Origin: Desulfobacterales bacterium
Lineage (GTDB): Bacteria; Desulfobacterota; Desulfobacteria; Desulfobacterales; SpSt-501
Direction of reading: 5' to 3'
Assembly: GCA_041736435.1 (NCBI GenBank)
Contig: JBGSTS010000106.1
Location: 13,625-77,624 of the forward strand
DNA: 64,000 nt
Under the pieces are notes generated by a model. It was not told the origin of the DNA, made no database searches, and was given only the letters and a program-made list of their open reading frames with translations. Position 1 is the stretch's first letter; each line of letters starts with the position of its first letter. This document shows positions 4,603 to 61,060 of the stretch, one piece after another. The translations under genes and the position numbers were made by a program.

Positions 4603-4881
4603 TTATTCCTCAAAACCGGTTTCGATCAGCCGAGCCAGGGTCTCGAGCACCAGGCGATCGGCCGGGTCCTCGGCCGCCAGGGTCAGCCGTGCCCCCCGGG
4701 CACACCCTAAAGCGAGCACGTCCATGATGCTCGTGGCGTCGGCCTTCTCTTCACCGAAAACGACCCAGATGCGTGATCTCGCCTCTTGCGCGGCCCGGGC
4801 GAACCGGGCCGCCGGCCGCGCGTGGAGCCCGAGTTCGTTCACGACGGTGACGTTTCTGGTCAGGTGGTTGCTGAGTGCCAC
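4603..4881 (-). CDS. ptsH: HPr-family phosphocarrier protein
   Basis: VTVVNELGLHARPAARF is the active-site His motif. The start is placed at GTG 4881, giving a ~92-aa HPr-sized protein. The track start ATG 4938 lies inside repeat copy A1 and would add 19 atypical residues. Confidence 0.8.
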   Translation of the reverse strand: MALSNHLTRNVTVVNELGLHARPAARFARAAQEARSRIWVVFGEEKADATSIMDVLALGCARGARLTLAAEDPADRLVLETLARLIETGFEE

Positions 4882-4928
4882 GCGGCTGCCTGCATCATCG
4901 ATGCCGTCGCGCCCGATTCGACCGTTTA

Positions 4929-5074
4929 CAGTGTCCATCCGGCAATGGTGGATTATGGTTCATGTCAAGGCCGCAGCGATTTTGCAACCGGAGGCGCAGT
5001 GGGTCACCGCCGAGGATTGCGACGAGCGAGAACGCCGGCCTGGGCCGAAAGGCGCCGTTATTGGATGGACACTA
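4929..5074 (+). repeat. Family-A structured intergenic repeat, copy A1 (~146 nt long imperfect hairpin)
   Basis: cAGTGTCCATCC...ATGGTGGATTATGG...GCAACCGGAGGCG...CGCCGAGGATTGCGA...GGCGCCGTTATTGGATGGACACTa. The terminal arms are complementary. Homologous to the copies at 7225, 15098, 17832(-), 34721 and 56916. Confidence 0.85.
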
Positions 5075-5468: not shown

Positions 5469-7055
5469 ATGGCGGCAAGCTCCTCGGAACGAAGCGGTCG
5501 GCTGCGGCGGGATGCGGGCCGCGATGCGTCCCCGCGGCAGGTGCCTGACGGCATGGGCGCGCTGCAGCGCCAAAACGAGTATCTCTGGGCCCTGCACGAG
5601 ACCTCGCTGGGGTTGATCGACCGGCTGGACAAGGAGGAGCTGCTCGAAGCCGTGCTGCACCGGGCCGCGCGCATGACCGGCACCGAGCACGGGTTTATCT
5701 ACCTGCTCGACGCCGACGAGAACCGTATGCAGATGCGGGTGGGCATGGGGTTCTTCAAGGAGCAGCTGGGCCTGAGCGTGCGCCCGGGGGAAGGCCTGGG
5801 CGGCCGGGTGTGGCAGGATCAGACCGTTCTCTTGGTGGACGACTATCACCGTTGGCCCGGGCGGCTGGCGGGCAAGTCTTTGGATCGGCTGCGCAGCATC
5901 GTCGGCATTCCCTTAAAGTACCGGGGCCGGGTGGAGGGCGTGATCGGCCTGGCGCACGTGGAGGTGCACAAGGGTTTCCAGGCCGAGGACATCGTCGTGC
6001 TCGAACGGTTCGCGGAGCTCGCCACCGTGGCCCTCGACAAGGCACGGCTTTACGCGGAGGCCCGCTGCGAGCTGGCTGAGCGCAAGCGCACTGAGGAGAT
6101 CCTGCGGGATAGCGAGGCGCGCTACCGTCTGCTGCTCGAGTCCTCGCCGGACCCGGTGGTGGTGTACAGCACGCAGGGCGAGGCCCTTTACGTGAACCCG
6201 GCCTTCGAACAGACGTTCGGGCTCCGGCGCGAGGAGCTGCTGGGCAAGCAGATCGATTTTGTGCCCGAAGAAAACTGGCCGGAGACCCGCGCGGCGATCG
6301 AGAACATGATGCAGGGCGAGAAGATCCAGCTGTTCGAGACCCGCCGCCGCACCCGTGACGGCCGCACCCTGGACGTGCAGCTGAGCTCTACTCTGTTCTT
6401 CGACCACGACGGCCGACCGGCCGGTAACATCGTGACGCTGCGGGACATCAGCGCCCTGAAGCGCGTCGAGCACGAGCTGCTCAAGTACCAGACGCAGCTG
6501 GAGGACCTGGTGGCGGCCCGCACGACGGAGTTGGCCAGTGCCAATGCCCGCATGGCTCAGGAAGTGGTAGGGCGCAAGCGCACGGAAGCCAATCTCCGCA
6601 AACGGGAAAGGGAGCTCAAGGCCCAGTCCATGCATTTGCAGGAAGTCAACACCGCCTTGAAGGTTCTCTTGCGGCAACGCGAGGGCGACCGCAAGGAGTT
6701 CGGCGAGATGGTGGTGTCCAACACCCGTGAGCTGATCAGCCCCTACCTCGAACAACTGAAAAAGAGCCGCCTGACGTCGATGCAGCGCGCCATGGTCGAC
6801 ATTCTGGACGCCAATCTCGAGAACATCATCTCCCCGTTCATCAGCAAACTCTCCAGCCGCTACGCCAACCTCACCCCGACCGAGATCCGTGTGGCCGGCC
6901 TGGTCAAGGAGGGCAAGACCAGCAAGGAGATCGCCGAGCTGCTCTATCTTTCCAAGAACACCATCCTCTTCCACCGGCACAACATTCGCACCAAGCTAGA
7001 TCTTCGAAAAAGCAAGAAAAACTTGCGATCTCACCTGCTCGGGCTCGAAAAATAG
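5469..7055 (+). CDS. GAF/PAS sensor, LuxR-family transcriptional regulator
   Basis: GAF-like N-terminal half, a PAS region (PDPVVVYSTQGEALYVNPAFEQTFG), a coiled coil, and a C-terminal LuxR HTH (LTPTEIRVAGLVKEGKTSKEIAELLYLSKNTILFHRHNIRTKL). The start is uncertain; ATG 5553 is an alternative. Confidence 0.85.
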   Translation: MAASSSERSGRLRRDAGRDASPRQVPDGMGALQRQNEYLWALHETSLGLIDRLDKEELLEAVLHRAARMTGTEHGFIYLLDADENRMQMRVGMGFFKEQLGLSVRPGEGLGGRVWQDQTVLLVDDYHRWPGRLAGKSLDRLRSIVGIPLKYRGRVEGVIGLAHVEVHKGFQAEDIVVLERFAELATVALDKARLYAEARCELAERKRTEEILRDSEARYRLLLESSPDPVVVYSTQGEALYVNPAFEQTFGLRREELLGKQIDFVPEENWPETRAAIENMMQGEKIQLFETRRRTRDGRTLDVQLSSTLFFDHDGRPAGNIVTLRDISALKRVEHELLKYQTQLEDLVAARTTELASANARMAQEVVGRKRTEANLRKRERELKAQSMHLQEVNTALKVLLRQREGDRKEFGEMVVSNTRELISPYLEQLKKSRLTSMQRAMVDILDANLENIISPFISKLSSRYANLTPTEIRVAGLVKEGKTSKEIAELLYLSKNTILFHRHNIRTKLDLRKSKKNLRSHLLGLEK

Positions 7056-7224: not shown

Positions 7225-7369
7225 AGTGCCTATCCAAACATGGTGGATTTCGGTTCAGGCCATGGCCGCAGCGATGTCGCAACCGGAGGCGCAGTTGAGC
7301 ACCGCCATGGATTGCGACGCAAGAGAACGCCGGCATGGGCCGAAAGACGCCGTTTATGGATGGGCACTA
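7225..7369 (+). repeat. Family-A structured repeat, copy A2
   Basis: AGTGCCTATCC...ATGGTGGATTTCGGTTCAGGCCATGGCCGCAGCGATGTCGCAACCGGAGGCG...GGATGGGCACTA. Its last 3 nt are the complement of the phnD stop codon. Confidence 0.85.
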
Positions 7370-8377
7370 GTTGTATTTTTCGACGAATTTCACGTAGGAC
7401 TGAATGTCCGCAAGCTTCTTTTCGATGTCCGCAAGCTTTTTAGCCTTGTCGGCGGCGGCCATCGTATCGTTGCTCTGGAGTTTCATCCTCTCCTTGGCCA
7501 TGTCGATCTCCATGATCGGCAGCAGCTGGTGGTTGGACGAATCCTGGAAGGGCGCCCAACCGGAGCTCATACCGGCCAGCACCGTGCGCTCCTTCTCCTT
7601 GTCGGTCCCAATGCGGCCGTAGGCCAAGAAGAACCCCTTGATCTTGCTCTTCCACTCCTTGGAGAGGTCCTTGCGCCACACCATGGGGTCGCTCGGGATC
7701 AGAGGGCTTTTCCAGATGGCGCGGACGTTCTTGATCTGCTCAGGGTGGGCCTTCGCAAACTTATCCCAGTTCTCGGTGTTGTTGGTGGCGAAATCCACCT
7801 GCTTGTTGGCCACCGCCATCAGGTTGGTCTCGTGGTTGGCGCTGCGCATCAGTTTGAAGTGCTTGGCCGGGTCGATCCCGCGCTGGCCCCAGATATAATA
7901 GGTGGGGATGAGGTTTCCGGAGGTGCTGTTGGGGTCCCCGTTGCCGAAGGTGAGGTTCTTGCCGTCACGGAGGATCTCGTCGATGCTCTGGTAGGGGCTG
8001 TCCTTGTGTACAACAATGAGCGACCAGTACCCCGGGTTGCCGTTGACATCCACGGTCTGGACGAAGACCTCCCCGCCGGCACGGTTGACGGCCTCGATCG
8101 CGGATTTGTTGCCGAACCAGGCGATCTGAACCTTGTTGAAGCGCATGGCCTCGATCACGCCGGCATAGTCGGGGGCGATGAAGAGCTTGACCGGGATGCC
8201 CAGATGCTTTTCCATGTCTGCCCGGAAAGGCTCGAACCCCTTCATCGCGGAGGAGGTCGATTCGGTGGGGATGATGCCGATCGTAATCTCCTTCAGCTCT
8301 TCGGCCGCGCGCGCGGCACCGGCCGCCAGCACCAGCGCAGCCACCATTCCAACCAACAGCCAACTCAGTTTTTTCAT
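7367..8377 (-). CDS. phnD: Phosphonate/phosphite/phosphate-type ABC transporter substrate-binding protein (PhnD family)
   Basis: Signal peptide MKKLSWLLVGMVAALVLAAGAARA. TIGIIPTESTS...FIAPDYAGVIEAMRFNKVQIAWFG is typical PhnD. The C-terminal coiled-coil tail carries an in-frame 21-nt tandem duplication (KKLADIE/KKLADIQ). Confidence 0.8.
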   Translation of the reverse strand: MKKLSWLLVGMVAALVLAAGAARAAEELKEITIGIIPTESTSSAMKGFEPFRADMEKHLGIPVKLFIAPDYAGVIEAMRFNKVQIAWFGNKSAIEAVNRAGGEVFVQTVDVNGNPGYWSLIVVHKDSPYQSIDEILRDGKNLTFGNGDPNSTSGNLIPTYYIWGQRGIDPAKHFKLMRSANHETNLMAVANKQVDFATNNTENWDKFAKAHPEQIKNVRAIWKSPLIPSDPMVWRKDLSKEWKSKIKGFFLAYGRIGTDKEKERTVLAGMSSGWAPFQDSSNHQLLPIMEIDMAKERMKLQSNDTMAAADKAKKLADIEKKLADIQSYVKFVEKYN

Positions 8378-14889: not shown

Positions 14890-15030
14890 TGAATCGCAAG
14901 GCCAATGTCGGCGTTGCGCTTTCCCGCCAAGGCGGGACGGTCACTGCGGTCCCGCCTTGGCGGGATACGCCTCGTTCCGCGGGATTCGTGCGCCGTGCCT
15001 GCCCCGCTTCAGCGGGGATATTGGGCTTGG
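14890..15030. repeat. Family-B palindromic intergenic repeat, copy B1
   Basis: GCGTTGCGCTTTCCCGCCAAGGCGGGA...GGTCCCGCCTTGGCGGGATACGCCTCG...GCCCCGCTTCAGCGGGG. Shares the GTTGCGCTT and GGTCCCGCCwwGGCGGGATACGCCTCG blocks with 32270-32385. Confidence 0.7.
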
Positions 15031-15097: not shown

Positions 15098-15245
15098 TTC
15101 GTGGCCGGTCAGAAATGGTGGATTACGGCCCCGGCCAAGGCCGTAGCGATGTCGCCACCGCAGGCGGTGTGAGGCACCGTCGAGGATGGCGACGAGCGAA
15201 AACGCAGGCCCGGGCCGCAAGGCGCCGTTTCTGGATGCGCACGAA
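15098..15245 (+). repeat. Family-A structured repeat, copy A3
   Basis: TTCGTGGCCGGTC AGAAATGGTGGATTACGGCCCCGGCCAAGGCCGTAGCGATGTCGCCACC...GATGGCGAC...GGATGCGCACGAA. Ends 1 nt before the phoR stop codon. Confidence 0.85.
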
Positions 15246-15246
15246 A

Positions 15247-17034
15247 TCAGGCGGGGTTGGGGCCCCGGGGCAGGTGGATGGTGAAGGTGCTGCCCTCGTT
15301 CAGGGCGCTGGCGACGTCCACGTGCCCGCCGTGGGCCTGGGAGATGTGCTTGACGATGGCAAGACCCAGCCCGGTGCCTCCCATGGCGCGGCTACGGGCC
15401 TTGTCCACGCGGTAGAACCGCTCGAAAAGCCGCGGCAGGTGTTTGCGCTCGATTCCGATCCCGTGGTCCTGAACGCTGATTTGAATTTCGTCTGTGGTCT
15501 GCCGCGCAGCGAGCCGGATTGAGGTTTCGGTGTCGCTGTACTTGATGGCGTTGTCCAGTAGGTTCACCACGGCCTGTTCGATCAGAACCGGGTCCACGAC
15601 CGCCGCCAGGTTTTCATCACCGGCCAGCTCGATGCGGATGCGCTTTTCATCGGCCCCCGGGCGGCAGACCTGAAGCGCGTTCTGGAAGATCTCCCGCAGC
15701 CGGGTTTTTTCCTGCTTCAGTTCGCGGCGCTCCCCCTGGTCCTCGATCCGCGAGAGCATCAACAGATCCTCCACCACGGTCGTCAGCCGGTCGACATGCT
15801 TGGCCACGATCCCTAAGAACCGTTTGGCCTCCGCCGGGTTTTCGACGACCCCTTGGTTTAAAGTCTCCACAAAGCCCTTGATGGCGGTCAGGGGGGTCTT
15901 GATCTCATGGGAGACGTTGGCCACAAAATCGCGGCGCATGTTTTCCAGCCGGCGCAGCTGAGTGACGTCGTTGAACACGATCAGGGTGCCGATCAGCTCC
16001 TGGCCGGCATCCAGAAGCGGGGCGCTGCGGATGTTGAGGACGCGCTCGCCGCTCTGGTAGACGACGATGTCGTCCTCCATGGGCGCCCGGCTGCGCAGCG
16101 CCTGGATGATGAACTGCTGCATGGCCATGTTACGGATGGCCTCGGGGATGCTGCGTCCCCGGATCTTTTCGGGCTCCGTTTCGAACCATTTGGCCGCCGC
16201 CGGGTTCAGGCTGATCAGCCGCTCCTCGCGGTCCACCGCGATGACCCCCTCCAGCATGCTCGAGAGCACGGCCTCGAGCTGGTTGCGCTGGCTGATGACA
16301 GTCTGCATGCGCCCCTCGAGCTGCGCTGCCATGCGGTTGAGAGACTCGGCCAGCCCGGCCAACTCGCCGGAATCGGGGATGGGCAGCCGGTGGGCGAGCT
16401 CGCCCTGGGCGAAGCGGGCGGCGCCGCGCTGCAGCTCACCGAGCTTGCGGGCGTATTGACGCGAAATCAGAAGTGTCATCCCGAGAGCCAGCAGAGCGAT
16501 GGCGGCGCCGATCAGAAAAACCTCAAGGCGGATCCGGGAGAGCTCCGTTTGCACCCGGGAGAGCGGGATGGCGGCGCGGATGACGGCCAGCGGTTGCATT
16601 CCCAGCGGGACCGAGACCGCCTGATAGATGATTTTCTGCCGAAGCGTTTCACTGAATCGGGTGGTATGCGCCGACCCAAGGCGGAGGGCCGCGGCCACTT
16701 CCGGCCGGCCCGCATGGTTGTCCATGTTCCGGGGGGTGTCCCGCGAATCGCCCACAACCAGCCCGTCGGGGAGGATGACGGTAAAGCGGGTCTCCGAGTT
16801 TCGGCCGGCGTTTTTGCAGATCTCGTCGATGATGTCGGTATCGGGCGGGCTCAGGTGCTTTTCGATTTGGGACTCGAGCAGGCGGGCCCGCTGGGTCAGG
16901 TCGGTGGCGATCTGGTCGACCAGGAACTGCTCCAGCGAGCGCATGGAGTACCAGCCGGCCGCGAGGAGCGCTCCGAGCGTGATCAGAACGTAGGAGATGA
17001 ACAGCCGCCACACCATTGCCCGGCGTCGGTTCAT
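15247..17034 (-). CDS. phoR: Phosphate-regulon-type sensor histidine kinase (PhoR-like; TM-HAMP-PAS-HisKA-HATPase)
   Basis: FVANVSHEIKTPLTAI (H-box), DNAIKY (N-box), GGTGLGLAIVK (G-box). Overlaps phoB by 4 nt. Confidence 0.85.
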   Translation of the reverse strand: MNRRRAMVWRLFISYVLITLGALLAAGWYSMRSLEQFLVDQIATDLTQRARLLESQIEKHLSPPDTDIIDEICKNAGRNSETRFTVILPDGLVVGDSRDTPRNMDNHAGRPEVAAALRLGSAHTTRFSETLRQKIIYQAVSVPLGMQPLAVIRAAIPLSRVQTELSRIRLEVFLIGAAIALLALGMTLLISRQYARKLGELQRGAARFAQGELAHRLPIPDSGELAGLAESLNRMAAQLEGRMQTVISQRNQLEAVLSSMLEGVIAVDREERLISLNPAAAKWFETEPEKIRGRSIPEAIRNMAMQQFIIQALRSRAPMEDDIVVYQSGERVLNIRSAPLLDAGQELIGTLIVFNDVTQLRRLENMRRDFVANVSHEIKTPLTAIKGFVETLNQGVVENPAEAKRFLGIVAKHVDRLTTVVEDLLMLSRIEDQGERRELKQEKTRLREIFQNALQVCRPGADEKRIRIELAGDENLAAVVDPVLIEQAVVNLLDNAIKYSDTETSIRLAARQTTDEIQISVQDHGIGIERKHLPRLFERFYRVDKARSRAMGGTGLGLAIVKHISQAHGGHVDVASALNEGSTFTIHLPRGPNPA

Positions 17035-17723
17035 GGCTTTTCCTTGAAGCGGTATCCGACGCCGCGCACGGTTTCGATGTAGCTGCCGTGGGCGCCGAGC
17101 TTCTTCCGCAGCCCGACCACCTGGACGTCCACGCTGCGGTCGGTGACGGGGTAGTCCCCGCCGCGCACCGCGTCCACGATGTGGCCCCGGGTGAACACCC
17201 AGCCCGGGCGCCGCGCCAGCACGTGCAGCAGCTGGAATTCCGTGTAGGTCAGCTCCACCGGCTTGCCGCCCGCCAGCACGGTGCGCCGGCCGGGGTGGAT
17301 TTCAAGATCGTGGATGGTAATGAAATCGGATTCGCCGACCGGCTCCCGGGAGCGGCGCCGCAGGACGGTTTTGACCCGGGCGATGAGCACGCGTGGGCTG
17401 AACGGCTTGGTGATGTAGTCGTCGGCCCCGATTTCGAGCCCGGCAACCACATCCGCGTCTTCACCCTTGGCGGTCAGCATGATGAGCGGCAGGGTTTTGG
17501 TCTTGGCATCGGCTTTGAGTGCCTTGGCCACCTCGAGACCGTCGAGGCCTGGCAGCATGAGATCCAGGACCACCAGGTCGAGAGCTTCCCGTTTTGCTTT
17601 CTTCAGGGCATCTTCACCGCTGGCTGAGACAACCACCTCATAGCCTTCGCGGGCCAGATGATAGCGCACGAGCTCTAAAATATCCTCTTCGTCGTCGACG
17701 ACCAGGATGCGTTGTTTTGCCAT
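17031..17723 (-). CDS. phoB: OmpR-family response regulator (PhoB-like)
   Basis: Receiver ILVVDDEEDI...DLVVLDLMLPGLDG, and a winged-helix C-terminus (TYTEFQLLHVLARRPGWVFTRGHI...VDVQVVGLRKKL...IETVRGVGYRF). Confidence 0.88.
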   Translation of the reverse strand: MAKQRILVVDDEEDILELVRYHLAREGYEVVVSASGEDALKKAKREALDLVVLDLMLPGLDGLEVAKALKADAKTKTLPLIMLTAKGEDADVVAGLEIGADDYITKPFSPRVLIARVKTVLRRRSREPVGESDFITIHDLEIHPGRRTVLAGGKPVELTYTEFQLLHVLARRPGWVFTRGHIVDAVRGGDYPVTDRSVDVQVVGLRKKLGAHGSYIETVRGVGYRFKEKP

Positions 17724-17831: not shown

Positions 17832-17977
17832 TAGTGCCCACCCATAAACGGCGCCTTTCGGCCCATGCCGGCCTTCTCGCTCTTCCCACTCCTCGGCGTA
17901 GACGCACTACGCCTCCGGTTGCGAAATTGCTGCGGCCTTGGCTTGGACCGAAATCCACCACTTCTGGATGAACACGG
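17832..17977 (-). repeat. Family-A structured repeat, copy A4 (inverted orientation)
   Basis: Reverse complement reads CCGTGTTCATCC AGAAGTGGTGGATTTCGGTCCAAGCCAAGGCCGCAGCAATTTCGCAACCGGAGGCGTAG...CTACGCCGAGG...GGGTGGGCACTA. Confidence 0.85.
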
Positions 17978-32269: not shown

Positions 32270-32385
32270 TGTAAAGCCCAACCTCTGCGTTGCGCTTCAT
32301 TTCGCACTTGCTGTGGTCCCGCCATGGCGGGATACGCCTCGCGAGGCGTAATTGGCGCGCTTTGACCTTGGACTTTGCACAAAGC
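32270..32385. repeat. Family-B palindromic intergenic repeat, copy B2
   Basis: TGTAAAGCCCAACCTCTGCGTTGCGCTTCATTTCGC...GGTCCCGCCATGGCGGGATACGCCTCGCGAGGCGTA...GCGCGCTTTGACCTTGGACTTTGCACA. The outer arms are imperfectly complementary. Confidence 0.7.
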
Positions 32386-34720: not shown

Positions 34721-34866
34721 CAGTTTCCATACAGAAACAGTGGATTTCGTTTCAGGTCAAGGCCACAGCGATTTCGAACCCGGAGGCGCAGTCAACCTAC
34801 GCCGAGGATTTCGATGAGCGAGAACACCGGCATGGGCCGAAAGATACCCTTTTTGAATGGAAACTG
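34721..34866 (+). repeat. Family-A structured repeat, copy A5 (most diverged)
   Basis: CAGTTTCCATAC AGAAACAGTGGATTTCGTTTCAGGTCAAGGCCACAGCGATTTCGAACCCGGAGGCG...CGCCGAGGATTTCGA...GAATGGAAACTG. Confidence 0.8.
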
Positions 34867-34873
34867 CTTAGGT

Positions 34874-36634
34874 TCATGGGCGCCGCGGCGGCTTCTGCCT
34901 CAACGCACGGTCGAGGGCTGCGTCCCGTTGATAGATGTCCTGCCGGAACTCGACCCTGCCTTCCGCATCCACCCCGGCCGTCATGTAGACCAAATGCACG
35001 GGGATTTTTTGCTTCAGGCGGACCGTGCGAAGCCGGCCGGCGTCGATGGCGGCGGTCACGGCCTCGCGCGACCATTCGGGCGAATCCTTTAATACGTAAA
35101 CAGCCAGTTCCAGGGGCTTTTCGATGCGGATGCACCCGGAGCTGAACCCGCGCATGCTGCGCTCGAAGAGACTCTTGGAGGGGGTGTCGTGCAGGTAAAC
35201 GGAAAACGTGTTCGGGAACATGAATTTAATCCGGCCCAGGTCGTTGTGAGGGCCGGGGTCCTTCATCAACCGGTAGCGAAAATTCCCGGGGCTGACCTGG
35301 CTCCAGTCGATTTCATCCGGATCAAGCTCAGCGGCGTTGCGGTTCCAGCTCTCGAAAACGCGGATTTTTTGGCGGCGCATGTGACCCGGGTCTTTGCGGG
35401 CCTTGGGCAGGATGTCCTGAACCGCGATGCGGTTGGGAATGTTCCAATCCGGATTGAAAACCAGGTGATCCATTAGACTGCTGAATACCGGGGTGCGGCG
35501 ATAGTGGCGCCCCACGACCACGCGCATGTCAAGGACCGACAACCCGTTCTCGACGGCGCTCAGCGTGAAATGGGGCACGTTGACCCATATGTGGCGTGCT
35601 CCTAAATCCTGCGGGAGCCAGCGCCAACGCTCCAGGTTCAATTCGATCTGGCGGATGCGCTCCCTTAGCGGTACGTTCAAGGCTTGAAGGGTCTGGGGGC
35701 CCATCCGGCCGTCGACTTCCAGACCGTGCCGGGCTTGAAACCGGCGCAACCCCTCGTATAGCTCCAGATCGGTATCGGTTTCGGATTTGTGCGGAGGGTG
35801 CGGCAGGTCGCCTGAACGGTCCAGACGCTCGCGCAGCAGGTCGGCGATCTCCCCGGTTTGCCAACGGTCCCAGGTGGATTTTTCCGGCAGCTGCGGCCAT
35901 TCACCGTCTGCGGTCAAGGTGCGATAATACGCCAAGGCGTTTCTCAGGGAGCCGTAGTCCGGGTGGGGTGGGGAAAAACCATCTAAAGCCTCCCCGATGC
36001 GGCCGGTTTCGATCGCACGCTCGAGAAGCTGTGCGATATCGACCTCCGGGTCCATCTGGACCACCCATTCGGCGTGCAGGGTCTCCGGGTTGACCCGCCC
36101 GGCCCGCAGGTGCGAGGCGATCAACAGGAAGGCATCTGTGAGCAGAAAGTCCAGGTCTACGGCCAGGGACGTATCAAGCGTGCGGCCGGAGGCCTGCTCA
36201 ATCTGATCCTGATCCAACAACCGGCGGATCGCCTCGAGGTGGTAGGCCTGCGGGTTCAGCCCATGCTCAACCGCGCGTTCGATGTGCCGGAGGAGATCAG
36301 TGGCCGGCGAAAACGACCTATCGGCAGCCTGCCAGGCCGGCCGATACTCCCGCAGCGCATAGAATCGCGGCAGTTCGGCAATTCCGCAGACCAGCTCTCC
36401 CTGACAGACCATGTAATCGGCTGCCTGGGCGGCAGCCACTTTGGCCCGCATCGCCTCTGCGAAGGGCCCGTGACCCGCAGAGCTGGCAGAGTCCGCCGGC
36501 CCCAGACCCAAGATACATATCAGGATGAAGACGGCGAGGCAGAACAAGCGCGGAGGGAGCGCCAACGCAATTGCCGGGGAAACGCTCTGGCTCGGCCGGC
36601 CACGCGGCGCCCTGAACTTAAATGACAAGTGCAT
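34874..36634 (-). CDS. L,D-transpeptidase, YcbB/LdtD-like (PG-binding plus YkuD domains)
   Basis: 586 aa. C-terminal YkuD signature HDTPSKSLFERSMRGFSSGCIRI. Signal/TM at the N-terminus. Convergent with the ycbK-like gene, as in E. coli ycbB-ycbK. Confidence 0.85.
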   Translation of the reverse strand: MHLSFKFRAPRGRPSQSVSPAIALALPPRLFCLAVFILICILGLGPADSASSAGHGPFAEAMRAKVAAAQAADYMVCQGELVCGIAELPRFYALREYRPAWQAADRSFSPATDLLRHIERAVEHGLNPQAYHLEAIRRLLDQDQIEQASGRTLDTSLAVDLDFLLTDAFLLIASHLRAGRVNPETLHAEWVVQMDPEVDIAQLLERAIETGRIGEALDGFSPPHPDYGSLRNALAYYRTLTADGEWPQLPEKSTWDRWQTGEIADLLRERLDRSGDLPHPPHKSETDTDLELYEGLRRFQARHGLEVDGRMGPQTLQALNVPLRERIRQIELNLERWRWLPQDLGARHIWVNVPHFTLSAVENGLSVLDMRVVVGRHYRRTPVFSSLMDHLVFNPDWNIPNRIAVQDILPKARKDPGHMRRQKIRVFESWNRNAAELDPDEIDWSQVSPGNFRYRLMKDPGPHNDLGRIKFMFPNTFSVYLHDTPSKSLFERSMRGFSSGCIRIEKPLELAVYVLKDSPEWSREAVTAAIDAGRLRTVRLKQKIPVHLVYMTAGVDAEGRVEFRQDIYQRDAALDRALRQKPPRRP

Positions 36635-56910: not shown

Positions 56911-58473
56911 CTAAATAGTGTCCGTCCAGAAATGGTGGATTTTGGTCCAGGCCAAGGCCGCAGCGATTTCGCAACCGGAGGCGTAGTTGAATCCACGCCG
57001 AGGATTGCGAAGAGCGAGAACGCCGGCATGGGCCGTAAGGCGCCGTTTGCGGAACCCGAGGCGGATCAAGGCTATGGCGTCGGGGTCGTCCTTGAGCAGA
57101 AAATAGAAGTCGCTTTTGTTGGTCAGCTTCTCGACGGAGGTAAACGGCTTGAGTTCCACCGCGAAGAGCGTGGCGGCCAGGTTCACGATGGCGGTGATCG
57201 TCTGGTTGGTGCGCTCGGCCAGGTCTAAATAGATGGCTTCCAGGGAATCGGCCAGTTTGCGGGCGGCCTGCTCGCGGAAAACCGAGAAGGTGTCCAGAAT
57301 CTCCTGGTAGAGCAGCTCCTCGAGCTCGGATTCGAGGTTTCGGCTATCGGCGCCGGAGCGGGTTTTTTCCCTGAAATGGCTTTCGATGGCGGTCAGCAGC
57401 GGGAGCACGCGCTCGCGCTTCAGCGCATTGAGGTCGCGGTCCAGGACATCGTGCATTTTACGGATCTGTCCGGTCAGGATGAAGTGGTGCTCCTCCGCGT
57501 CTTTTTCGGTCCGGCGCACGAACTTCTCGAACTGGGCGGCCTTGGCGCGCAGCTCATCAAGGCTCAGCTTGGCGGCTTCCTGCTCCAGCTGCCAGGCCAT
57601 GCTCTCATCGGAGACATAGCGCATGAGAGACGCCGCCATGGTCTGGAGAAAGGTTTTGCTCTTCTCTTTGTGCAAAAACTGGCGCAGGTGCTCCTCGAAA
57701 GCGGGCAGACCGGAGCGATCCAGTTTGTTCTTGTCTTTCTCCAGCCGCCCCTCCAACGCCAACCGGGCCGATATCGGCCAGACCGTGACGGAGCGTTTCA
57801 GGTCCTCCTGCAGGATATCGGCGGTGAACGCCAGTGCCTCGGCGAGGTCCTTCTCCCCGACCGTGTCGATCTTGTTCAGCACGAAAAACAGGTTGTCCAC
57901 GTAGCCTCGGACCTCCTTGAGAAAGCGGTGCTCCGAGGCGCTCAGCGGCGGGTCCGCGGTGACCACGAAGATGCCGGCGTCGACATTGGGCAGATAGGCA
58001 TACGCCACCTCCGTGTTGTGGTCGAAGACCGAGCCCACCCCGGGGGTGTCGATGATCCGGACCCCGTCCTTAAGGTGCGGGCACGGGTAGAACACCTCCA
58101 CCTCTTTGACATTCAGCCGGTTTTTGGGGTTTGCCTTTTCGGTCACATAGCGGTGGATTTCGGAGATGCCGGTCTCTTCACTGTGCCCATCCAGGAAGTG
58201 GACCACGCTTTTGGGCTGGGGCCCGAAGCAGAGCAGGGTGACGATCGAGGTGAGCGGCACGATGGCGGTGGGGACGATTTCTGTTCCCAGCAGGGCATTG
58301 ATGAAGGTGGACTTGCCCCGCTTGAACTGCCCCATGACCACCAGGTTGAATTGCTGCTGAACGAGCTTCTCCTGCAGCTCCTGCAACCGCCGGCTCCCAT
58401 CGAGGTCTCGGCCCGAAAGCTCCCCGATCACTGCGAGCAGCCCGTCCTTGATCGATGTGTAGTCTGAAGCCAT
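56911..58473 (-). CDS. Bacterial dynamin-like GTPase
   Basis: G1 GQFKRGKSTFINALLG, G3 DTPGVGS, G4 LNKID, then a long helical stalk. The last ~47 codons are antisense to repeat A6, so the native C-terminus is doubtful. Confidence 0.8.
   Translation of the reverse strand: MASDYTSIKDGLLAVIGELSGRDLDGSRRLQELQEKLVQQQFNLVVMGQFKRGKSTFINALLGTEIVPTAIVPLTSIVTLLCFGPQPKSVVHFLDGHSEETGISEIHRYVTEKANPKNRLNVKEVEVFYPCPHLKDGVRIIDTPGVGSVFDHNTEVAYAYLPNVDAGIFVVTADPPLSASEHRFLKEVRGYVDNLFFVLNKIDTVGEKDLAEALAFTADILQEDLKRSVTVWPISARLALEGRLEKDKNKLDRSGLPAFEEHLRQFLHKEKSKTFLQTMAASLMRYVSDESMAWQLEQEAAKLSLDELRAKAAQFEKFVRRTEKDAEEHHFILTGQIRKMHDVLDRDLNALKRERVLPLLTAIESHFREKTRSGADSRNLESELEELLYQEILDTFSVFREQAARKLADSLEAIYLDLAERTNQTITAIVNLAATLFAVELKPFTSVEKLTNKSDFYFLLKDDPDAIALIRLGFRKRRLTAHAGVLALRNPRRGFNYASGCEIAAALAWTKIHHFWTDTI
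56916..57048 (+). repeat. Family-A structured repeat, copy A6 (3' arm missing), embedded in the 3' end of the dynamin-like ORF
   Basis: TAGTGTCCGTCC AGAAATGGTGGATTTTGGTCCAGGCCAAGGCCGCAGCGATTTCGCAACCGGAGGCGTAG...CGCCGAGGATTGCGAAGAGCGAGAACGCCGGCATGGGCCGTAAGGCGCCGTTTGC, after which homology is lost. Confidence 0.8.
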
Positions 58474-58695
58474 TCCTAAACCTCCCTAAAAAAATGACCT
58501 CTACCGAGAGCACAACGCTCAAAGCAGAGGTCATCATCCCACTCTTTAAGGTGTATGGGCGGTTGCGGCTGACCTCATAGCCCGCAGAATCAATCATACC
58601 CTTTCCGAGCCCTCACCGAGTGTCAAGACATTCAGATTTCGGCGCTCGACCGACCTAAGGCTTTCGGCTCAAATAAAATGTTATTAAAATCCGTG

Positions 58696-60942: not shown

Positions 60943-61060
60943 GCTGCCGGATTTTCGGCAGACCAGCGAGGGGATGGAGTCCCCCCTACAACCGCCCATC
61001 TTGGGCTGATGACTCCTGCCGTGCCCCCATCCCGCGGCGGAGCCGTCTGCCCTCGACGAT

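Follow-up and report, generated by a model that had tools for sequence, protein, structure and literature searches.

A previously unnamed mobile hairpin of sulfate-reducing Desulfobacterales with the probable character of a MITE

The repeat that we call family A is a previously unnamed element, a mobile hairpin of sulfate-reducing Desulfobacterales. It is probably a MITE-type, non-autonomous DNA transposon whose range is restricted to Desulfobacterales and Desulfosarcinaceae. MITEs are defined by terminal inverted repeats, a target duplication, the lack of a transposase gene and a long stem-loop at the RNA level, and they often lie at the 3′ ends of genes (PMC3184786). The partner transposase aside, family A has every structural feature of this class (PMC3184786): it is smaller than the ~400-bp limit for MITEs, carries no transposase gene and is flanked by a 6-bp duplication of a palindromic target. 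Two features are nonetheless without explanation under a MITE model. The proliferating lineages maintain base pairing on one strand only, and in retained copies that strand is antisense to the gene which the element abuts.

Six copies are found in the window, by which we mean the whole 64-kb stretch of DNA that was analysed. With their limits set as GTG...CAC, these are A1 (4931-5072, + strand, full length at 142 nt), A2 (7226-7367, +, 142 nt), A3 (15101-15242, +, 142 nt), A4 (17834-17975, −, 142 nt), A5 (34723-34864, +, 142 nt) and A6 (56918-57053, +), from which the final ~9 nt are gone. An earlier reading of the sequence without database searches (the sequence-only reading) had placed six copies at these sites, and searches with defined patterns bear it out. 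A 22-nt core pattern with up to three mismatches matches five of the six sites, against a chance expectation of 0.00, and an nhmmer profile built from the six copies recovers each of them in full (E = 1e-39 to 1e-46) and otherwise matches the window only in weak reverse-strand echoes of the same copies. Mean column identity across the alignment of the six is 77%. The same reading had described A6 as having lost its 3′ arm; the copy is indeed truncated, but the loss was overstated, as it lacks no more than the ~9 nt that make up the 3′ half of the terminal stem.

Other structured elements occur in the window. A standard one-piece tmRNA gene lies near the first copies (1836-2192, − strand; RF00023, 204 bits), and two fluoride riboswitch aptamers (RF01734) are found less than 2.5 kb apart on opposite strands, at 60961-61025 (+, 55.9 bits) and 58518-58591 (−, 37.2 bits). 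There is also a second short intergenic repeat of 50 nt, with copies at 14944-14993 and 32311-32360 that are 80% identical and form a hairpin TCCCGCC...GGCGGGA; it may represent another repeat family. The first of these copies is just upstream of A3.

Full copies of family A are 142 or 143 nt long, with GTGYCC at the 5′ end and GGRCAC at the 3′ end. The whole element is a near-palindrome (GTGYCCATCCA.../...TGGATGGRCAC) in which the first 11 nt are essentially identical between the arms and constitute terminal inverted repeats. Two subterminal blocks, CAGGCCAAGGCCGCAG and GAGAACGCCGGCMTGGGCCGAAAG, are nearly invariant, unpaired bases included, and the same holds for the apical ACCGSAGGCGTAG...CTACGYCGAGGAT; in the terminal and middle stems the sequence is free to vary while pairing is kept, as judged from an alignment of 67 copies. 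Conservation is highest in the internal blocks and unpaired loops and lower at the extreme termini, which is unusual for a MITE or for any transposon driven by its terminal repeats. The 142-nt and 143-nt subfamilies are split by a 1-nt indel in the middle stem (alignment column 96), the 143-nt form with TTGAAACC...TTTCAA being dominant in Desulfosarcina genomes, and several copies reach 151-176 nt through additional sequence near the apical loop. An ATG at position 15 opens a reading frame through the element, but the two subfamilies shift that frame and a coding function was ruled out on this ground. A consensus scan for promoters and terminators found no sigma-70-like promoter or intrinsic terminator consistently in or beside the copies.

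The sequence-only reading had anticipated a high genome-wide copy number for this intergenic hairpin repeat and had not recognised a named family, and both expectations held. In a collection of species-representative genomes, more than 114 loci match a degenerate pattern of the 3′ conserved block, nearly all of them in Desulfobacterales, Desulfobacteraceae or Desulfosarcina, and nhmmer finds at least 147 non-overlapping copies in 0.91 Mb (the window and 118 fetched loci). Complete genomes with copies include those of D. alkanivorans PL12 (AP021874) and D. widdelii PP31 (AP021875). The hosts of the family span 46% to 62% GC, and the GC-rich core of the element is kept throughout. No Rfam 15 family reaches its gathering score for any copy, and a search with A1 at an E-value threshold yields only noise with E > 1. 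No match was obtained in 5,426 E. coli genomes (20,395 records; blastn, word size 11), and no copies were found in viral contigs or in PLSDB plasmids. A scan of the genome collection for the conserved block when not followed by ACCG gave just chance 16-mer matches in unrelated bacteria.

Two loci carry labels from outside the host group. The copy nearest to the consensus is at 2637-2783 of locus L025, which lies on a 1.17-Mb contig (CAVUOA010000009.1) labelled Ignavibacteriota; the 8-kb region has 60.7% GC and the contig shares its sample of origin with the burst genome described below. Either the taxonomic label or the binning is wrong, or the copy was transferred there very recently. Locus L019 (CAVRBK010000004.1), labelled Gammaproteobacteria, is 85-99% identical at the DNA or protein level to the Desulfosarcina loci L031, L053 and L073 and has an orthologous copy common to all of them; this contig is probably mis-binned. 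Other single loci bear on how the element is arranged and on how it is assembled. In D. alkanivorans PL12 (L089, 3531-6474) three successive copies each follow a gene, two of these genes being P-II-like and one encoding a 555-aa protein, in a gene-element-gene-element pattern. An exact-protein look-up for the protein encoded next to A2 recovered a sole other public contig (L119, Logan SRR28170473), which breaks off where the repeat begins, 26 nt beyond the stop codon. Assemblies of short reads and of metagenomes appear to be interrupted by the element.

Each window copy folds end to end as a single rod, with z-scores of −2.8 to −6.8 on the given strand, and the alignment of many copies provides statistical support for that structure. 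RNAalifold applied to the 67 full copies yields a 45-pair rod in which compensatory changes occur at 26 pairs. Covariation was assessed on a MAFFT alignment of these 67 copies against 500 shuffles on a 50-pair structure: 94.7% of cells are paired compared with 89.6±0.2% after shuffling, and 26 pairs show double changes compared with 12.4±2.0, none of the 500 shuffles reaching 26. Slid registers leave 33-41% of cells paired. The covariation claimed in the sequence-only reading is thus statistically supported, and the compensatory examples cited there are visible in the six-copy alignment and found again among the 67 copies. They include GTGTCC/GGACAC versus GTTTCC/GGAAAC in the terminal stem, TCGCAA/TTGCGA versus TCGCCA/TGGCGA versus TCGAA/TTCGA in the inner stem, and GGCGTAG/CTACGCC versus GGCGGTG/CACCGTC in the apical stem. 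One example was misplaced: the TTCGTG/CACGAA pairing of A3, given as a terminal stem, sits in the flanks, outside the element.

The rod is strongly strand-specific, as the G-U pairs noted in the six copies had suggested. Minimum free energies for A1 to A6 are −65.2, −75.6, −83.5, −77.1, −51.3 and −53.8 kcal/mol on the given strand, compared with −54.0, −61.3, −75.6, −48.2, −48.9 and −47.7 kcal/mol on the reverse strand. In the larger set all 67 copies, the most divergent third included, have a + strand that is 17-22 kcal/mol more stable than its complement, and the written strand has 472 G-U cells compared with 55 A-C cells. The polarisation to G-U is limited to variants common to many copies, and variants present in three copies or fewer are strand-symmetric (38 G-U and 37 A-C). 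Since only the widely shared variants are polarised and the rare ones are not, we infer that pairing of the + strand is needed or selected in proliferating lineages and that inserted copies then decay without strand preference. Known C-to-T or deamination biases of the coding or leading strand would yield A-C mismatches on the + strand. This polarity is the opposite of that observed, which makes mutation bias an unlikely cause of the pattern; it was rejected on this reasoning. A transposase that binds double-stranded DNA leaves the one-strand G-U polarity of every lineage unexplained.

The evidence for transposition comes from the flanks. The 6 bp on either side of GTG...CAC are identical in 9 of 89 copies, compared with a mean of 0.2 and a maximum of 3 when the pairings are shuffled, and they agree at five or more of the six positions in 21 of 89 (shuffled mean 2.5, maximum 8). 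An excess of this order is confined to the 6-bp length. Agreement between the flanks extends to the two variable middle positions of the duplication (z = 6.0 and 3.5). Exact duplications are limited to the most consensus-like copies, which is what a decay of duplications with age would produce. Base counts in the flanks define a palindromic target, YTANNTAR, and the base preceding the flanking TA is a G in just 13 of 89 copies. DDE-type transposases that work on double-stranded DNA are recognised by exact ends, a stagger of constant length and a target site that is symmetric, and the data therefore point to a staggered-cut, DDE-type enzyme acting in trans. Target repeats of 6-7 bp are left by elements of the ISDol1 group or by IS481-like elements. 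The sequence-only reading had set its view of a structured RNA or single-stranded DNA against that of a plain MITE, bounded by target-site duplications and accompanied by a conventional transposase. Duplications, 6 bp in length, do occur; a conventional transposase was not found in the fetched 0.9 Mb.

The search for a partner covered several kinds of evidence. No transposase, RAYT or reverse transcriptase gene lies beside copies or between inverted pairs of copies in the 118 loci, no autonomous insertion sequence with the same terminal repeats is present in the fetched 0.9 Mb, and a fuzzy search for the terminal repeats outside known copies revealed no paired ends, the open reading frames beside solo ends being housekeeping genes. 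An all-against-all comparison of the loci at DNA and protein level detected only orthologous synteny and no multi-copy transposase, and the recurrent neighbour clusters identified with Pfam are ABC transporters, response regulators, P-II proteins, dehydrogenases and similar families. A clean pair of empty and filled sites was not recovered from the look-up of the A2 neighbour or from the comparisons of L111 with L010 and of L114 with L069, the last pair being too diverged for a clean reading of the site. The one usable absent ortholog is that of the 176-nt copy at 6237-6412 of L111, which is accompanied there by a further 50 nt and a solo CTGTCCAT fragment; the orthologous position in L010 (4446-4450) has only GTGTCCAT. 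This difference looks like a complex deletion between two terminal-repeat starts, or else an excision footprint.

To place the copies with respect to genes, genes were called from codon usage, with a Pfam check on ten window genes. Among copies with genes close on both sides, 55 lie between tandem genes and antisense to both, 9 lie between tandem genes in the sense orientation, 19 are between convergent genes and 8 between divergent genes. Where the element faces an opposite-strand gene, the stop codon of that gene is a median of 1-3 nt from the 3′ end of the element. An opposite-strand open reading frame of at least 80 codons ends at the 3′ junction in 68 of 111 copies, and the equivalent arrangement at the 5′ end is seen in just 28 of 103. 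The commonest stop at the 3′ junction (26 copies) is a TAG made up of the flanking TA and the terminal base of the element. Target availability was ruled out as the cause of this adjacency, as overlap with a stop codon is seen at only 1% of unoccupied YTANNTAR sites and at 3% of TANNTA sites.

Three of the window copies follow this rule. The TAG stop of the phosphonate-binding protein gene at 7367-8377 (−) is formed from the last base of A2 and the flanking TA (7367-7369, CTA on the + strand), the stop codon of the histidine kinase gene at 15247-17034 (−) occupies 15247-15249, 4 nt from the 3′ end of A3, and the stop codon of the YkuD L,D-transpeptidase gene at 34874-36634 (−) is 9 nt from the 3′ end of A5. 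A5 has an ortholog in MAG JAWOHH01 (L020, 1649-1794) and is therefore older than the split between that genome and the source genome. A1 and A4 are in divergent intergenic regions, the former between the gene at 4603-4938 (−) and a PAS/GAF/LuxR regulator gene at 5469-7055 (+), the latter ~110 nt upstream of a response-regulator gene at 17031-17723 (−). A6 is read through: the reading frame of a dynamin-family GTPase (56911-58473, −) traverses all of it on the opposite strand. The final ~45 codons of this frame come from the complementary strand of A6, and its TAG stop (56911-56913) falls 5 nt past the element. Apparently, the insertion of A6 together with a small deletion created a C-terminal extension of the GTPase.

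One genome appears quite different in this respect. The MAG MFD02416.bin.1.144 (CAWAUC01), from the Microflora Danica sample MFD02416 and here termed the burst genome, holds near-identical copies with intact duplications, in contexts that are sense for 7, antisense for 9, divergent for 5 and convergent for 3. All other genomes together have 51 antisense, 7 sense, 19 convergent and 6 divergent copies, and the share of copies that abut a stop codon climbs from 25% in the most consensus-like third to 75% in the least. We read the orientation bias as differential retention and not as a preference at insertion, although differences between lineages in target choice could contribute, given that the comparison is one between genomes and not between dated insertions. 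Stop-abutting copies persist at orthologous positions where the flanking proteins are 82-99% identical, in a set of loci that is biased because presence of the element was the reason for retrieving them. Orthologous copies have diverged by 0.14 on average, compared with 0.23 at fourfold-degenerate sites (~60% of the fourfold rate), and the differences at paired sites comprise 38 of the G-U type, 26 A-C, 24 other mismatches and 12 double changes that keep the pairing. Such slow divergence indicates mild constraint or gene conversion, and the latter is favoured because one ortholog difference reproduces the middle stem of a common subfamily.

On the basis of these observations we propose the following model. 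A transposase supplied in trans would insert the element into palindromic YTANNTAR sites with a 6-bp stagger, which would leave the 6-bp target-site duplication, and this step would have no orientation preference. Over evolutionary time the host would then mainly keep those copies whose 3′ end lies against the stop codon of an opposite-strand gene, the junction of TA and G often being used as a TAG stop codon. In the copies that are kept, the mRNA would bear the weaker-folding complementary strand as the first sequence of its 3′-UTR, and we infer that such copies act as, or are tolerated as, 3′-UTR hairpins. A plausible link between the one-strand pairing and the antisense position of retained copies, offered here as a hypothesis, is that a + strand RNA rod of such stability would do harm immediately behind a stop codon, perhaps by attracting nucleases or by hindering ribosomes, and that the mismatched complementary strand would be tolerated there or be useful as a 3′ hairpin.

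Other readings were also considered. In one, proliferation would pass through a single-stranded intermediate of fixed polarity (folded + strand ssDNA or RNA) and yet yield the 6-bp duplication of a staggered cut; alternatively, stop-abutting copies would have been exapted as structured elements of the antisense strand at the 3′ ends of genes. We consider either of these rather unlikely. To our knowledge, no described bacterial transposition pathway joins a single-stranded intermediate of fixed polarity with a staggered-cut duplication of 6 bp.

A REPIN or REP-type origin, which the sequence-only reading had named as one of two possibilities, would have the + strand ssDNA hairpin cut and pasted by a RAYT, an IS200-like Y1 HUH transposase encoded by one gene per genome. 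This would account well for strand-specific pairing that tolerates G-T wobble in all propagating lineages, for stems that vary in sequence while they keep their pairing and for the failure to find a DDE partner; the position of copies downstream of genes, with termini that give TAG stops, also recalls the GTAG REPs (PMC3733652). However, family A carries the 6-bp duplication with its variable middle bases, and neither of its ends, GTG.../...CAC, bears a GTAG or CGTC tag. By the published mechanism of the IS200 family, no target duplication is expected on insertion. Furthermore, the arms pair with each other in a single rod instead of forming a doublet of self-folding REP hairpins, and no RAYT-like gene is found between or beside copies in 0.9 Mb. 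The REPIN reading accordingly fails on several counts, and we think it quite unlikely. Because a 6-bp duplication at a palindromic target is the signature of a staggered-cut transposase, the element is MITE- or ERIC-like and not REPIN-like.

The second possibility raised from the sequence was a structured non-coding RNA whose + strand is transcribed, for instance as an antisense or 3′-end-associated transcript, with the rod under host selection and its spread secondary. Covariation above all controls, the conservation of unpaired blocks, a G-U polarity that extends to the most divergent copies, the divergence of orthologs at ~60% of the rate of fourfold sites and the 12 double changes that preserve pairing between orthologs are all in keeping with it. 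The proposal is weakened, however, by the finding that most old, retained copies have their better-folding + strand antisense to the gene that they abut, by the strand symmetry of rare variants and the fact that half of the ortholog differences break pairs, and by the lack of a consistent sigma-70-like promoter or intrinsic terminator in or next to copies or of any Rfam match; gene conversion among copies could also account for the slow divergence. An RNA gene of this kind is, in our view, quite improbable.

Far less probable again is an RNA-mediated, SINE-like retroelement, whose folded + strand RNA would be reverse-transcribed into staggered nicks and so give rise to the duplication. It would explain why strand-specific G-U pairing is confined to proliferating lineages, why a target-site duplication is present and why no DNA transposase partner was found, but the ends are precise, the duplication is essentially fixed in length, the target consensus is palindromic, there is neither a series of 5′ truncations nor an A-rich tail, and no reverse transcriptase gene is near the copies. 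We know of no SINE-like retroelement system in bacteria. Finally, integron attC sites are known to fold in a strand-specific manner, to start at the stop codon of a cassette and to combine conserved boxes with a variable paired stem. Family A resembles such structure-specific, single-stranded sites of a tyrosine recombinase in that it folds on the complement of the coding strand, starts at a stop codon and has conserved boxes on either side of a paired stem of variable sequence, but the RYYYAAC/GTTRRRY core sites are absent (the ends are GTGYCC/GGRCAC), the copies are single and scattered among housekeeping genes of both orientations without arrays beside an integrase, they carry the 6-bp duplication and they are randomly oriented in the burst genome, all of which makes this idea barely credible.

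A MITE-type transposon therefore remains our preferred explanation, and it has several implications. Host genes gain stop codons and C-terminal extensions from the element, as is seen for A2 and A6. The contrast between the burst genome and older genomes offers unusually clean material on how hosts filter mobile hairpins at the 3′ ends of genes, and the polarised G-U pattern of the proliferating lineages poses a concrete question about single-stranded steps in the mobilisation of MITEs. The work also describes, in a form that can be tested, a repeat that probably occurs in large numbers in Desulfosarcinaceae, which are important marine sulfate reducers and alkane degraders.

Among described elements, the closest parallel is with ERIC (or IRU), a 127-bp MITE of the Enterobacteriaceae, and the label 'ERIC-type' used in the sequence-only reading is fair as a functional analogy. 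Both are dispersed imperfect palindromes of ~130-140 bp with a long hairpin at the RNA level, both have terminal inverted repeats and TA-containing flanks, both are often located at the 3′ ends of genes and in both the consequences for the upstream mRNA depend on orientation (PMC3184786). There is no sequence similarity between the two (the 5,426 E. coli genomes contain no match) and the host clades are different; family A has a 6-bp duplication (TANNTA) where ERIC has a TA motif at both termini (PMC3184786), and it shows, unlike ERIC, a strong retention bias for one orientation right at the stop codon. Correia elements (NEMIS) of Neisseria, RUP of Streptococcus and Chunjie of Geobacter are likewise small elements without coding capacity that have terminal inverted repeats and a target duplication, occur in many copies with bursts in single genomes and form a stable stem-loop (PMC3184786). 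Family A differs from these in that the whole element forms one rod, the invariant parts are internal and not terminal, the mismatches are G-U-polarised on one strand and no parent insertion sequence was found in the fetched DNA. REP and REPIN sequences also form hairpins, lie downstream of open reading frames between tandem and convergent genes and have termini that can provide a TAG stop (PMC3733652), and their hairpin is thought to matter for mobility (PMC3116915); family A is set apart from them by its lack of a GTAG/CGTC tag and of a doublet of short hairpins, by its 6-bp duplication and by the fact that no RAYT is seen at its loci (PMC3116915, PMC3733652). In comparison with integron attC sites, it has no core sites, arrays or nearby integrase, it carries a duplication, and its young copies are randomly oriented.
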